Source: Octopus vulgaris | Taxonomy: Eukaryota | DNA: 64,000 nt | Assembly: GCA_951406725.2 (NCBI GenBank) | Contig: OX597819.1 | Coordinates: 100,192,001 to 100,256,000, forward strand | Direction of reading: 5' to 3' | In this document: positions 2,407 through 54,635 of the stretch, in pieces | How positions within the stretch are numbered: the first letter of the stretch is position 1 | How the letters are laid out: each line of letters begins with the position of its first letter | Position numbers and translations under genes: made by a program | The notes under the pieces: generated by a model | The model's database searches: none | What the model saw: only the letters and a program-made list of their open reading frames with translations | Told to the model about the DNA's origin: nothing

Positions 2407-2765
2407 ATCCACTCTAGGTTGCTAATCTATCCGGTGTTCTTGCTAGAGGTAAGACGAAAACATTTTATATTCGTCCCCCGCACACATCTTTGCCAGTATA
2501 TATTCTGTGAAGCTTCACATAACGTTGCACGGTTATCGAATGCTATTTCCAGTGAAAATTGGTGCCTTGTTGTACCATTATTTTATACTTGTAGTTCTAC
2601 CTTTACAGTGCTTTATTTAGCTGGAAAATAATACTATTATATTCCAATATTATTTATATTTTTATGTAAAACTTTTTCACTGATTTCGGTACTATTCACA
2701 GCTAGGCATTCAAGCGAATATACTGGCATTGAATTAAGGAATAATTTGAAATTTCGTTTTCGGTG

Positions 2766-2840
2766 AATGTAGCTGATGGCGACTAACCGAATTTACGATA
2801 ACAGGCGTATTAGGAAAGTCCGAAACCCGAGTACTAGATT
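2766..2840 (+). ncRNA. Degenerate second copy of the 2332 hammerhead
   Basis: aatgtag-CTGATGG-cgac...gtcc-GAAA-cccgag-TA-ctagatt; A9>G and stem mismatches. Confidence 0.7.
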
Positions 2841-2852
2841 ATCTACTCTAGG

Positions 2853-7480: not shown

Positions 7481-7771
7481 CCTTTCGACTGATTTGGTTC
7501 CAGAGTCCTTACTGCGATTTATTTTTATACTGTTTTGGTACATCATTGATTTTTTTGTTTTTTAAGGCTACAGCCAGCCATTCAGTTGAGACTCACAGCA
7601 CCATCAACAATCATGAATTAGTTAATCAAGTTAATCAATCAATCGATGTTGTTCTCGTACAATGCTTGTGCAAGAAGATTTTTTTAACATACATACATAC
7701 ATACATACATACATACAGATAGAGAGACAGAAAAACAGACACACATTTATATATGTAGTTATATACATACA

Positions 7772-10722
7772 TAAACAACATGGCGTTGGCTTTGCAGTGA
7801 GAAACTCACTACTCTCCTCAATAGAACCACCATCGGGAGGCACTGAGCGTATCCTCTCACTGCGCCTCTCGACTTCTTCTGGCTCAGTACATCTACTCAG
7901 CATCTATTCTCCCACTCTCAACAGCTCAGAGGAGACCAAGGACCAGTTCTACAAAGATCTCAACTGTGTCCTAGAAAATATACCAACGACTGAAAATATC
8001 TACCTTCTAGGGGATTTTAACGCTCGCGTGGGATCTGACCATGATTCGTGGCCCATTTGTGTTTGACACTTTGGTATTGGCAACATGAATGACAATGGTC
8101 AGAGACTACTCGAATTCTGCACATACCACAACCTGTGCATCACAAACACATTCTTCACCAGCAAGCCATCCCACAAGGCATCCTGGAGACATCCAAGATC
8201 TCACCACTGGCATCAGCTGGATCTCATCATTACACGGAGATCCTTTCTGAGTTCCACTCTATTGACCCGCAGTTACCACAGTGCGGATTGTGACACAGAC
8301 CACTCACTAATTAGAAGCAGGGTGAGGATTCTCCCTAAAAAAGTCCATCGCTCCAAGAAAGTGGGCCGACCACGCATCAACACCGCCAGAACCTCGGACC
8401 CTACACTGCGAAAATGTTTTGCTGCTTCTATCAAGGTTGCCCTCAGTAGCTGCCCAACCTCCTCTGCTGAAAGTAGGTGGGACTATATCAGGGAAGCCTT
8501 GTATACGACATCATTGGATACTTTCGGCATGAGAGAAAGGCAAAACCCAGATTGGTTCAATGCTGGGCTCTCAGAGCTGGAGCCAGTTATCGAAGCAAAG
8601 CGTGCAGCTCTGGTGCAATACAAGAGTGACTCTTCTACAAAGTCACTCGAAGAACTCAGAAAGGCACGAAATAAAACCCAACTGACAGCCAGATGCTGTG
8701 CAAATAGGTATTGGCAGGAAATCTGTCAGAGTATCCAGTCAGCTGCTGACAGGGGCGACACCCGTGGGATGTATGCTGGTTTGAAGAAGGCCCTCGGTCC
8801 ATCCGCAACCAAGTCAGCCCCTCTGATATCAACTACTGGAGATCTCATCAGGGATCAAGGCAAGCAAATGGATAGATGGGTGGAGCACTACCAGGATCTC
8901 TACTCACGGGAGACCACATTGTAGCTGAGGCTGCAGTCGAGAGTGTCAAGATCTTGCCAGTCATGTGCGAACTTGACAGTCCGCCATCTATAGCAGAGCT
9001 CACCAAGGCTGTTGACTCCCTAGCAAGAAATAAGGCTCTGGGAAAAGACGGCATCCCCTCAGAGATCATCAAAGCCGGCAAAACACCATCCTGCTTCGGC
9101 ACCTTCATGAGCTTCTGTGTCAGTGCTGGGAAGAGGGTACAGTCCCTCAGGATATGCGGGATGCCAACATCATTACGCTCTACAAAAACAAAGGTGACCG
9201 TGGTGATTGTAACAATTACCGTGGTATATCCCTTCTAAGCACTGTTGGAAAGACCTTTGCCCGCGTTATCCTGGCCAGGCTACAACTACTTGCTTCTCGA
9301 ATCTATCCGGAATCGCAGTGTGGCTTTAGAAGAAGCAGATCAACTATCGATATGATATTCTCCATACGCCAACTTCAGGAGAAGTCCAGAGAGCAGAAAA
9401 TGCCATTATATATGGCCTTCATTGATCTAACAAAGGCTTTTGACTCGGTAAGCAGAACAGGCCTCTTCCTCCTGCTCCAAAAAATCGGATGTCCACCAAA
9501 GCTGCTGAGGATCATCAAGTCTTTCCATGATGACATGCAAGGCACCATACAGCACAACGGTTCAACATCAGCCGCCTTCCAAATAAAAAACGGGGTAAAG
9601 CAAGGCTGTGTCCTCGCTCCTACATTGTTTGGCATCTTCTTCTCACTCTTGCTGTCACATGCCTTTCAGACATCAGATGATGGAGTGTTTCTGCACAGTA
9701 GAAGTGACGGGAAACTGTTCAATCTCTCGCGCCTGCGTGCCAAGACCAAAATCAGAAACGTCCTGATCAAGGAGATGTTATTTGCTGATGATGCCGCTCT
9801 GGTAACACACACAGAAGAAGCCCTCCAAAGGCTCATTAACTGTTTTGAGCAACCATGTAACGACTTTGGCTTAGCTATCAGCCTTAAGAAGACCAACATC
9901 ATGGGCCAGGCTACATCGGACATCCCAAACATACATATTGGAGACCACAGATTACAAGAGGTGGAGAAGTTTACCTATCTGGGCTCTACCGTCACCTACA
10001 ACCTATCCCTTGACGCTGAGCTCAATATACGCATTGGCAAGGCAGCTGCTGCGATGGCCCAACTCTCCAAACGGGCTTGGGACAACAATAAGCTGACCAA
10101 GACCACAAAAATGAAGATCTACCAGGCATGTGTACTCAGCACTCTACTGTATGGAAGCGAGACCTGGACGCTATACACACGCGAAGAGCGTCGCCTAAAC
10201 ATCTTTCACCTGCGCTGCCTCCGAAAAATCCTCCACATCAAATGGCAGAATCATATCCCCAACAAAGATGTCCTCAGGCAAGCAGGAATACCAAGCATGT
10301 TTGCACTCCTCACACAAAGACGTATGAGATGGCTTGGGCATGTTAGCCGTATGAAAGATGGCAGAATCCCCAAGGACATACTCTACGGAGCGCTTGCTAG
10401 GGGTACTAGGTCTGTGGGTAGACCGATCTTGCGTTACAAGGATGTTTGCAAAAGGGATATGAAGGCCTGCAACATCAACATTAGCGGTTGGGAGGCAGTC
10501 GCCGGCAACCGTGGAGAATGGCGACGTACAGTAAAAGAGGGTATACAGAGGAGTGACAGAAAGAGAGAGGAGAAATGGAAAGAAAGGAAGAGACATAAAC
10601 AAGAGACCATGGCACTACAATCAGCCAGGAACAGTCTTCGCTACGTTTGCAGTACCTGCCAGAGGGAGTGTTTGTCCAGGATAGGACTACACAGCCACAG
10701 CAAGAAATGTAACAGGAAATAA
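7772..10722 (+). mobile_element. RTE-clade LINE, 5'-truncated, APE + RT + C-terminal Cys/His motif; one stop (8064-8066) and two frameshifts (~8920, ~9085)
   Basis: GVGFAV, LLGDFNARVG, SWRHPRSHHWHQLDLII, DCDTDH (APE); NYRGISLL, QCGFR, FIDLTKAFD, GVKQGCVLAP, LFADD, FTYLGS (RT); CSTCQRECLSRIGLHSH. Confidence 0.97.
9154..10722 (+). CDS. RTE LINE reverse transcriptase ORF fragment (522 aa)
   Basis: Uninterrupted ORF covering the RT motifs and C-terminus; part of the disrupted ORF above. Confidence 0.85.
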   Translation: MRDANIITLYKNKGDRGDCNNYRGISLLSTVGKTFARVILARLQLLASRIYPESQCGFRRSRSTIDMIFSIRQLQEKSREQKMPLYMAFIDLTKAFDSVSRTGLFLLLQKIGCPPKLLRIIKSFHDDMQGTIQHNGSTSAAFQIKNGVKQGCVLAPTLFGIFFSLLLSHAFQTSDDGVFLHSRSDGKLFNLSRLRAKTKIRNVLIKEMLFADDAALVTHTEEALQRLINCFEQPCNDFGLAISLKKTNIMGQATSDIPNIHIGDHRLQEVEKFTYLGSTVTYNLSLDAELNIRIGKAAAAMAQLSKRAWDNNKLTKTTKMKIYQACVLSTLLYGSETWTLYTREERRLNIFHLRCLRKILHIKWQNHIPNKDVLRQAGIPSMFALLTQRRMRWLGHVSRMKDGRIPKDILYGALARGTRSVGRPILRYKDVCKRDMKACNINISGWEAVAGNRGEWRRTVKEGIQRSDRKREEKWKERKRHKQETMALQSARNSLRYVCSTCQRECLSRIGLHSHSKKCNRK

Positions 10723-11244: not shown

Positions 11245-12078
11245 GTGTGTCATACATATTTATATGCACATGCATATATACAAGCATGTATATAGAAATT
11301 AAATATATACATGTATATATATAGACTATATCGGCAATTTAATCTACTATCTTGTCAGCCATATATCTCTTGAACAATCGTTGGTATCGTGATAGTTTGA
11401 GATCTCCATTTTTAATTCATAGTTAATCAGTTATTCTCTTACACATAACATAAGGATAGCGTGTATCCAACGATATACATATACATGAGATAACCGTCAC
11501 ATAGACGTAGATCGTAAGACAATAGTAGCTTCGTTGCTTTTTTTAAAAATCTGCCGGAATAAAATGACGTATCCCTTAAATATTGACGTCATCATCATCT
11601 GCGTTGCAGAATAAGCGTTAAGTGGCTGATGCTTCAAGGTGGAAGGGAGATAACAAAGAAATTATTCTTTTCTCTGGTGTTCTGCGAGAACAATAGGCGT
11701 ACCAACTTCGGTTATGTATGCATGTATGTATGTATGTATGTATGTATGTATGTATGTACGTATGTATGTATGTGTGTATATTACTGTATGTTGTATAATA
11801 TTATAAGATATTATATAATAAAATGCATATATTCAGATTTTTCACTATATTCAACTATCATTCTTTAGGATATTCAAATATCAGCTTCTTATGAATGAAA
11901 TTTTGCAATTGTTTTCATCTTGATGAAAAGCAGCTTCTAAAACTTAGAACAGAATGTTGCGAAATTCCAGTTTCAAATAATTCGCATCACTATATAATCA
12001 ATATGAAATGCCTTCTTTTCTTTCTCTTTCCCTTTATATATCCATATGTATGTATATATGTATGCATGTATAAACACT

Positions 12079-12140
<62 letters not shown>

Positions 12141-12142
12141 TG

Positions 12143-12183
<41 letters not shown>

Positions 12184-12418
12184 TTATATATGAGGATAAT
12201 ATCGATATTTAAGTGTCGAAATTATCAAGTGGCCAGCATGAAAGAAATACCTTACAAAGGTAAAAAAAAATTTTAACAATTAAAAATGAGGGTGTCTAAA
12301 AGACACCAACATGCCGAAATAGCAGTCGAAACACTGACTATAGTACCACGTTAAATGTTCATATCGCACCATGAGGTAAAGCGGAGGGACAAAACATACA
12401 AGCAAAAATTATTGAATA

Positions 12419-12478
12419 ATTCAAGATCCAAGGATTTCTGGTTCTGCTTTAGATAAGCTTTACCGTCATCAATTGAAT
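12419..12478 (-). ncRNA. Type I hammerhead (U3 variant) in the inverted arm
   Basis: Reverse complement of the motif at 12596. Confidence 0.75.
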
Positions 12479-12595
12479 ATATCAAGGGTACATCAATACA
12501 GATATATATATGCACAGCAAACGATATACTTACATACACGAGCGTCGTACATACATACATATGCACGTATGGACACAGCCAGTTTGAATCGCCCG

Positions 12596-12655
12596 ATTCA
12601 ATTGATGACGGTAAAGCTTATCTAAAGCAGAACCAGAAATCCTTGGATCTTGAAT
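12596..12655 (+). ncRNA. Type I hammerhead (U3 variant)
   Basis: ATTCAA-TTGATGA-c GGT aaa GCTT atcta AAGC aga ACC a-GAAA-TCC tt GGA-TC-TTGAAT; AUC triplet ending at 12649. Confidence 0.78.
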
Positions 12656-13078
12656 TATTCAATAATTTTTGCTTGTATGTTTTGTCCCTCCGCTTTACCT
12701 CATGGTGCGATATGAACATTTAACGTGGTACTATAGTCAGTGTTTCGACTGCTATTTCGGCATGTTGGTGTCTTTTAGACACCCTCATTTTTAATTGTTA
12801 AAAATTTTTTTTACCTTTGTAAGGTATTTCTTTCATGCTGGCCACTTGATAATTTCGACACTTAAATATCGATATTATCCTCATATTTAAATTTATATAA
12901 TTCGTTATTATATTCACTGCGGTGCTTATTTTAACCATATCGTACTTATGCGGTGATTTGGCGGGCGATTCAAACTGGCTGTGTCCATACGTGCATATGT
13001 ATGTATGTACGACGCTCGTATATGTAAGTATATCGTTTGCTGTGCATATATATATCTGTATTGATGTACCCTTGATAT

Positions 13079-13138
13079 ATTCAATTGATGACGGTAAAGC
13101 TTATCTAAAGCAGAACCAGAAATCCTTGGATCTTGAAT
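13079..13138 (+). ncRNA. Type I hammerhead (U3 variant), tandem copy
   Basis: Identical to the 12596 motif; AUC triplet ending at 13132. Confidence 0.78.
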
Positions 13139-13285
13139 TATTCAATAATTTTTGCTTGTATGTTTTGTCCCTCCGCTTTACCTCATGGTGCGATATGAAC
13201 ATTTAACGTGGTACTATAGTCAGTGTTTCGACTGCTATTTCGGCATGTTGGTGTCTTTTAGACACCCTCATTTTTAATTATATAT

Positions 13286-13339
<54 letters not shown>

Positions 13340-13730: not shown

Positions 13731-13934
13731 TAAATAATTCGGGAACGAAGAAGTCTGTGAGCCATCGTAAACGTCAGTAGTGTGTTTAAATCCTGCCGAA
13801 ATCTCTTTTGCCTTACATGTTCACAATGTCTACAGAAGAAATACCAGTTGGATACTGTGGTCGATGTTATCAGCAAACCTCCTTACCTAAAACTGCTGCC
13901 GTTGTGCGATGAGGTGGAATAATTCTTACCGCGT

Positions 13935-15160
<1,226 letters not shown>

Positions 15161-34895: not shown

Positions 34896-34921
34896 TCTGC
34901 AAATTATATTTTGCTATGACG

Positions 34922-34993
34922 ATCACACTGATGAATTGAGGACATTTACGCAAGTAATTACGTAAGTGGTAACAATGAAACCGGATTTGTGAT
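34922..34993 (+). ncRNA. Type I hammerhead, one extra base before the cleavage site
   Basis: ATCACA-CTGATGA-ATTG..atttacg..cgtaagt..CAAT-GAAA-CC/GG-aTT-TGTGAT. Confidence 0.72.
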
Positions 34994-35247
34994 TAATCTT
35001 TATATTTTGCATCTTTTCATTTGTCTTGCTCGCTTACGTTCTGGCGTTTGTAGAATTTTCTAGAAAACAATATTTTCTTAGTGGTAAGACCATAGGGGGT
35101 CTACTTCCAGCATAATGGATGTCCACTTAATGGCCATCCCTCTTATATGTATGTAATATAATTTTTCCTTATCTTCAGATTTTTCAATATGCTAGGCCAC
35201 TGGTTTTAAATTGATATTAATCAAATGAATATTCAATTTTTCAACCT

Positions 35248-54124: not shown

Positions 54125-54424
54125 CTACATTTAATAGAAGAGGAATTATGTACATTAATTACAATTGACTGATACTTGTCCTCATCTTGTTTGTTGTTAA
54201 CACAACGTTTCGGCTGATACACCCTCCAGCTTTCATCAGGTGTCTTAGGGAAACTTCGAACCTGGGTTCTCATTCCTAACGTATTTTTTGATGTTGTTAT
54301 TATTCAGGTCACTGCCTGGAATCGAACTCGGAATCACTATGCCATATGCCCACGGGTGTAGTGGTTAAGAGCGCGGGCTACTAAACCCAAGATTCCGAGT
54401 TTGATTCTGGGCAGTAACCTGAAT

Positions 54425-54486
<62 letters not shown>

Positions 54487-54635
54487 CAACATCAACAAAT
54501 ACCTTAAGAATGAGAAACCAGGTTCGAAACTTCTCTACGACATTTGATGAAGACTGGAGGGTATATCAGCCGAAACATTGTGTTAACAAACAAGATGAGG
54601 GCAAATATCCGTCAATTGTAAATAATGCAAATAAC
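54125..54635. mobile_element. Head-to-head pair of tRNA-headed elements, each tRNA-like head + (AAT)n + minimal hammerhead + tail
   Basis: Right arm: ggtgtagtggttaagagcgcgggctactaaacccaagattccgagtttgattc. Left arm (minus): gggcatatggcatagtg..attccgagttcgattcc. Arms are reverse complements through caagatgagg.caa.tatc.gtcaattgtaa. Confidence 0.85.
54199..54244 (-). ncRNA. Minimal type I hammerhead
   Basis: Minus strand: GACAC-CTGATGA-aa GCTG gagggtgtat CAGC c-GAAA-C/G-TT-GTGTT; degenerate mirror copy at 54539-54584 (+). Confidence 0.8.

Follow-up and report, generated by a model that had tools for sequence, protein, structure and literature searches.

A young 483-nt repeat of Octopus vulgaris with a non-canonical predicted hammerhead core and a likely Penelope-type insertion structure

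How does a short repeat without a protein of its own come to lie in a TA microsatellite as two back-to-back arms, and does the ribozyme that it appears to encode have a part in putting it there? The question is raised by a locus within a 64,000-nt stretch of the Octopus vulgaris genome (contig OX597819.1, positions 100,192,001 to 100,256,000; hereafter, the window). The original prediction described near-identical copies of a 483-nt tandem unit joined to an inverted arm, and alignment of the repeats confirmed that arrangement (window 12035-13332). The plus arm comprises a full unit (12596-13078) and then an identical copy of unit positions 1-201 (13079-13279), so that the direct repeats 12596-12796 and 13079-13279 match at 201/201 positions, 483 nt apart. 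The inverted arm (12176-12595; 420 nt, minus strand) has 1 mismatch in 318 against 12962-13279 and 3 mismatches in 303 against 12596-12898. It is contiguous, running from unit 367 through 483/1 to 303, and extends 102 nt beyond the end of the plus arm (201). The whole insertion is set between (TA)n tracts. Its features are as follows.

12035-12175, no strand: (TA)n-rich target tract, left flank (from sequence)
12176-12595, minus: inverted arm, unit 367-483 then 1-303, whose outer end is the long fixed 3′ end (~304) (repeat alignment)
12176-12277, minus: ~102-nt 'tail' (unit 202-303), on the inverted arm only (locus mapping)
12419-12478, minus: predicted type I hammerhead motif, U3 at 12472, predicted cut after 12425 (from sequence)
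12584-12601, no strand: 8-bp hairpin over the 5′-to-5′ inversion junction (12595/12596), particular to this copy
12596-13078, plus: one complete 483-nt non-coding unit (repeat alignment)
12596-12655, plus: predicted type I hammerhead motif, U3 at 12602, predicted cut after 12649 (from sequence and covariation)
12759-12839, plus: conserved long-range helix (12759-12764 with 12834-12839), enclosing the hairpin that precedes the first fixed end
12848-12879, plus: hairpin just 5′ of the second fixed end (~304), which inspection by eye shows in relatives but the consensus fold did not recover
13079-13138, plus: second tandem predicted hammerhead motif, U3 at 13085, predicted cut after 13132
13079-13279, plus: partial tandem unit (1-201), stopping at the short fixed 3′ end (repeat alignment)
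13250-13266, plus: hairpin just 5′ of the first fixed end (~201), kept in relatives
13280-13332, no strand: (TA)n-rich target tract, right flank (from sequence)

Neither an ORF nor a match to a PLE protein was found in the element, which thus lacks the RT and GIY-YIG ORF of an autonomous PLE. The three hammerheads proposed for the locus could all be placed: UUGAUGA starts at 12602 and 13085 on the plus strand and at 12472 on the minus strand, where 12419 is the far end of stem I and 12478 its first base. The proposed cleavage sites at 12649 and 13132, 483 nt apart, coincide with the predicted C17, and the minus-strand C17 falls at 12425. The plus motif (12596-12655) combines a 6-bp stem I, U3 opposite G8, a C.A at the base of a two-part stem II and a palindromic stem III; U3 and the C.A pair recur in all three copies.

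The locus is one member of a dispersed family. When the unit was searched against the 2.8-Gb host genome, 40 out of 1712 candidates were scored and yielded 158 matches, the best copies being 97-99% identical. An exact 19-nt core pattern occurred in 260 genome copies (0 for a control pattern) and the 3′ motif in 331. Near-identical sequence was also present in sequencing runs under five organism labels, and contigs of two independent runs contained the 483-nt tandem join. We mapped 86 loci: the leading 100 entries in the list of core matches supplied 61, the search by DNA similarity added 12, and a further 13 were recognised by the 3′ motif without the exact core. Their outer ends lie at unit ~201 or ~304, giving two fixed 3′ ends. 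Fifty-four of the 86 are two-armed and 32 single-armed, 25 of the 86 carry two tandem full hammerhead motifs, and arm lengths reach 3.5 units.

The two ends are strictly paired. In all 48 two-armed loci where both ends could be classified, a ~201 end faces a ~304 end (binomial p=1.1e-13 for the first 44 loci); no 201/201 or 304/304 insertion was found among these 48, and the other 6 of the 54 have one unclassifiable end. The hairpin and long-range helix that precede the first end (~201) are conserved in diverged relatives in the consensus fold; the hairpin before the second (~304) is visible there by eye and was missed by the consensus fold. In the first 73 loci, (TA)>=3 adjoins 115/121 family 3′ ends, and one clear target-site duplication was seen (L037). 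There, a 16-nt duplication flanks the element, with a long perfect (TA)n between duplication and element on both sides, a layout which suggests that (TA)n may be added or expanded during insertion. The tandem and inverted arrangement, 5′ truncation and one-ended tail from two initiation sites are those of a PLE-type insertion, and a short non-coding tandem unit with one type I hammerhead each, in a dispersed multi-copy family co-existing with PLEs, is as expected of a non-LTR retrozyme. With copies ~99% alike, the earlier view of a very recent retrozyme/PLE-type insertion is supported.

Is the predicted ribozyme a conventional one? The G12A13A14, A15.1-U16.1 and H17 positions of a type I hammerhead are all present. 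The canonical core C3U4G5A6N7G8A9, with C3-G8 or U3-A8, is absent: U3 opposite G8 stands in 65/65 rows of the hammerhead alignment that span this site, drawn from 24 loci which a DNA similarity search had recovered, and C.A replaces the G10.1-C11.1 pair that closes stem II. The family search that had been called for therefore found U3 as the consensus, in keeping with the proposal that U3 and C.A were already in the source template. We found no second canonical core on either strand of the unit and no genome match to a canonical core with this subfamily's stem III. Rfam returned no hammerhead at its gathering or E<=10 thresholds, the matches at E<=10 being microsatellite noise. A C3U change in the hammerhead core is strongly impairing. 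The 3/8 pair and dimeric PLE hammerhead variants are reportedly the subject of work by Lunse 2017, Przybilski and Hammann 2007, Nelson and Uhlenbeck 2008, and Martick and Scott 2006.

A sister subfamily, traced through a variant table from other sequencing runs, has C3 and C4 (U4C) in 88/88 matches and shares the same two ends. The canonical-core pattern gave 23 matches against 2 for the control. Three of these belong to the U4C/U3 clade, where one shares its locus with an adjacent C4 copy, a pairing that CpG decay would produce; most of the others are older relatives of the same design. Within the clade, non-canonical copies outnumber canonical ones by 348 to 3. Two older families, sampled regardless of core, have C3 in 30/35 and 28/35 rows with C.A as the commonest state at the base of stem II, and one relative (L103) has C-G there instead. 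In a 64-row tree the canonical families split from the U4C/U3 clade with support of 100/100, and the U3 copies are nested in the U4C copies with modest support (91/85), one U3 row standing apart. The U3 and U4C motifs differ at 5 positions, none of them in a stem. These comparisons suggest that the C.A pair is old and that the core drifted twice in the clade, to U4C and then to U3, leaving the stems intact. An uncompensated U3.G8, altering a normally invariant catalytic position, is fixed in the youngest and most abundant subfamily.

The fold was examined by a covariation test on 21 aligned motifs with 500 shuffles and slid controls. Hammerhead stems had 87.8% paired cells, compared with 74.1% after shuffling and 23-44% in the slid controls. 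Double-sided changes occurred in 62 cells versus 22 in the shuffles, none of the 500 shuffles reaching as high, and involved 5/6 stem I pairs; two measures that count pairs or pair types did not exceed the shuffles (82 and 85 of 500). A lack of stem conservation across the family, which together with a lack of cleavage would have spoken against the original prediction, was not what we saw. The alignment argues that the type I hammerhead fold is real, with three stems covarying across the older canonical-core (CUGAUGA) relatives. In energy terms the monomer hammerhead fold is not optimal (-5.7 kcal/mol vs -10.4 kcal/mol for the minimum-energy fold). The stem III palindrome has a predicted self-duplex of -8.9 kcal/mol. 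When a transcript of the entire locus is folded in silico, the inverted arm base-pairs with the second hammerhead motif and would sequester it.

We consider it likely that the locus is a young, protein-free, hammerhead-bearing 483-nt repeat whose two back-to-back arms, ending at fixed sites, were written into a TA microsatellite by a PLE reverse transcriptase-endonuclease. This starts from what the copies display: the anatomy, the family, two ends of which each arm uses one, 5′ junctions that scatter, insertion at (TA)n, and a hammerhead fold that covaries although its core is fixed as U3.G8. In the scheme we propose, a tandem copy would be transcribed and the weakened ribozyme would probably cut slowly, two copies pairing via the palindromic stem III, perhaps with assistance from a protein. 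Cutting would release a 483-nt monomer, which would probably be circularised. A PLE enzyme, probably a dimer, would nick both (TA)n strands, and each 3′-OH would prime reverse transcription at one of two hairpin-marked internal sites. The two cDNAs would vary in how far they extend, up to 3.5 rounds, and would read past the ribozyme site; their ends would be joined via 0-5 nt of microhomology or a short templated insert, yielding head-to-head arms. Because reverse transcription would start at two internal sites, the tail would be left on one side only; in vitro, two internal RT start sites do account for the tail of a PLE, according to PMC11167929. A fuller version is conceivable and we advance it tentatively: that the youngest subfamily spreads via a 483-nt RNA circle cut by an attenuated, uncompensated U3.G8 hammerhead reached through U4C; that the PLE dimer invariably begins its two cDNAs at different hairpin-marked sites, one at each, with 103 nt between the sites; and that A>G / T>C changes arising in the template RNA return to the genome by this route.

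The same two-site PLE insertion could also operate if the ribozyme of this clade were dead or could be dispensed with; read-through transcripts of the tandem, left uncut, would then serve as templates and the fold would persist as a relic or a protein-binding site. We regard this as rather unlikely. In its favour, the core changed twice, with the preponderance of non-canonical copies given above, and the 5′ ends of 0/152 pieces fall at the predicted cut, with no pile-up there or at stem I. In vitro, the single mutants C3G and G8C (C3U not being one of them) abolished cleavage by a PLE hammerhead and insertion was unaffected, as reported in PMC11167929. A 2026 preprint (Li, Clavereau and Pollet, bioRxiv 10.64898/2026.07.22.740005) describes no cleavage in 8/9 Xenopus retrozyme dimers. 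On the other side are the sparing of the stems by all 5 U3-vs-U4C differences, the arms of 3.5 units and the variants shared between tandem rounds.

These shared variants come from a template analysis of 69 loci, using pieces >=60 nt and >=93% identity. Copies diverge by 0.84% within a locus and by 2.2% between loci. We counted 27 rare variants common to every copy in a locus; of these, 15 recur from one tandem round to the next within a single arm, and 7 of the 15 were seen in one locus only. This favours a monomer step, in which a circle or cut monomer would be copied repeatedly, after U3 was fixed; since the sharing between rounds suggests such a step, the predicted ribozyme probably retains some cleavage. 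Gene conversion could be an alternative source of the shared variants. Common variants were discordant within a locus in 20/130 cases, so that some tandem rounds differ at them, as a dispensable ribozyme would allow; this fits mixed templates, linear multimers or conversion, and argues against a single clean template. A>G or T>C changes made up 18/27 shared rare variants but 34/149 single-copy changes (Fisher p=1.5e-5), an excess which points to editing, or to miscopying, of the template RNA; the sequence contexts of the T>C changes among the shared variants are not a clean editing signature. The RNA data consist of contigs, and the sole confirmed RNA run contributed a single 220-nt piece. Separately, a low-depth contig of run X17, a run guessed to be RNA, has clustered A>G changes at window 13035-13170, as editing of double-stranded arms would give. 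We rest no argument on either observation.

The original prediction explained the inverted arm differently, as a product of fold-back priming at stem I within a single insertion, the ribozyme setting the boundary of the unit. The junction was correctly described as a small hairpin, which has 8 bp and a 2-nt loop (12584-12601) and spans the junction; the hexamer with which stem I opens recurs at unit ~373-378, and this repeat accounts for the hairpin. A few near-symmetric family junctions (L206, L014), together with the palindromic junctions and self-priming proposed for rotifer PLEs in PMC3846280, lend the idea some weight. The arm, however, runs 102 nt past the end of the plus arm (201) and therefore cannot be a fold-back copy of it, and the paired fixed ends of the 48 loci do not suit it either. 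The 5′ ends of the 152 pieces are scattered over the unit, with 2 within 3 nt of the stem I start and 2 at unit 50-60, and 114/152 pieces cross the predicted cut site. Hence the statement that the unit starts at stem I holds for this copy and fails for the family. An 8-bp junction hairpin was found at 1/37 junctions, matching the 3.9% at random junctions. Overlap at the 37 near-flush junctions averaged 1.49 nt against 0.72 at random; inserts of >=3 nt occurred in 11/48 junctions. The locus census largely refutes the fold-back reading, which we now hold to be very improbable. That the junction falls at stem I is particular to this copy and no more than chance would allow. Here the two cDNAs may have been joined with the help of a local snap-back, though such a step could not be distinguished from chance. 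As for an assembly artefact or a local DNA-level duplication or inversion, to which the near-identity of the copies and the low-complexity DNA on both flanks might point, it is scarcely credible given dozens of loci on many chromosomes with the same ends and different junctions, arms that differ at 1-3 sites, and the tandem join in contigs of independent runs.

Insertion by a PLE enzyme, the reading we prefer, calls attention to the PLEs of the host. Intact RT + GIY-YIG PLEs do exist in the genome, ending at two nearby sites with (TA)n flanks. A PLE sharing this element's repeat or ends was not found in 30 GIY-YIG loci and 6 further regions, with 150 of 6136 candidates scored. Two intact PLE families (with a 781-aa and a 574-aa frame) were rejected as partners, having unrelated repeats and ~30-nt tails, and apparent PLE neighbours at L137 and L300-L305 proved to be independent insertions. 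The first of these families (L134-L141, e.g. L138 244-5490) is young. Its 781-aa RT + GIY-YIG frame is preceded by a 466-aa ORF that has no Pfam match, its terminal repeats measure ~500 nt and its tail ~30 nt; no canonical hammerhead was found in it. A second PLE family with an inverted arm (L142 2121-5283, and L117) has hammerhead C4 in one copy and U4 in a relative, and is an independent case of the U4C variant.

Other features of the window were recorded in passing. At 2330-2410 and ~2765-2845 (plus) a different retrozyme-like family is represented by a tandem pair of type I hammerhead motifs, spaced ~436 nt, whose core is canonical and whose stem III is palindromic; the second copy is decayed. 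A single hammerhead-like motif at ~34918-34997 (plus) has a canonical core, a long stem II and a palindromic stem III, ~250 nt from a (TA)n tract. Minimal motifs lie head-to-head at ~54200-54590 (54239 minus, 54544 plus), C3 being present in one and U3 in the other, and similar motifs occur in L303 and L305. The window also contains a nearly intact LINE-type element with endonuclease and reverse transcriptase frames (7635-10722, plus), which we take to be RTE-like, and a cluster of diverged, SINE-like dispersed repeats of ~75-150 nt, including a 184-nt tandem duplication (13790-14880).

How does the family compare with known systems? Metazoan non-LTR retrozymes, as portrayed by Cervera and de la Pena 2020 (PMC7229834), resemble it in their non-coding tandem unit, single type I hammerhead and low GC, in a short palindromic stem III suited to dimers, and in co-occurring with PLEs; the 2026 preprint derives such retrozymes from PLE repeats. 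The octopus unit of 483 nt is longer than the 170-400 nt given in the 2020 paper and within the 51-972 range of the 2026 survey. It differs in its core, which is known here from sequence and is U3.G8 (U4C in the sister) in place of CUGAUGA, and in its inverted two-ended insertion structure, of which no description was found in the accessible text of PMC7229834 or the 2026 preprint.

With EN+ PLE pLTR/tail elements (PMC8557442, PMC3846280, PMC11167929, PMC4209133) the family shares a partial tandem with an inverted 5′-truncated copy, a one-ended tail and two internal initiation sites; the layout itself is set out for PLEs in PMC8557442 and PMC3846280. Also shared are AT-rich or microsatellite targets, mostly without target duplication, and a hammerhead in the repeat. 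In contrast to those elements it has no ORF, and its tail measures ~103 nt where theirs have 30-40 nt; the octopus family keeps strictly to the one-end-of-each rule (48/48), whereas these sources describe the PLE tail as optional or often one-sided. Natural core variants likewise change at positions 3, 4 and 10.1/11.1 (PMC3088659, PMC4209133), examples being a viroid hammerhead whose U4C change lowers its activity, a U.U pair at the foot of stem II (both in Perreault et al. 2011, PMC3088659), and the U3-A8 covariation of schistosome PLE hammerheads (PMC4209133). The octopus U3, unlike these, faces an unchanged G8, is uncompensated and is fixed in hundreds of young copies. We found no paper on an uncompensated U3.G8 hammerhead, a variant that supplements may list, and no description of this 483-nt family in the literature on octopus. 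By its structure the element belongs with animal non-LTR retrozymes and not with autonomous PLEs, its predicted core departing from the canonical one. The retrozyme class and the PLE insertion footprint were known; what is added is a fixed non-canonical core and a strict end-pairing rule.

The family amounts to a natural experiment on whether hammerhead cutting is needed for Penelope-type mobilisation. Within a single genome, canonical, U4C and U3.G8 cores share one predicted fold, and it is the core furthest from canonical that is youngest and most abundant. A side-by-side comparison of the three cores would reveal either a new tolerated core or a retrozyme that spreads without cleavage. The one-of-each end rule and the 103-nt tail, in turn, offer a sharp in vivo prediction about the second-strand step of PLE integration.
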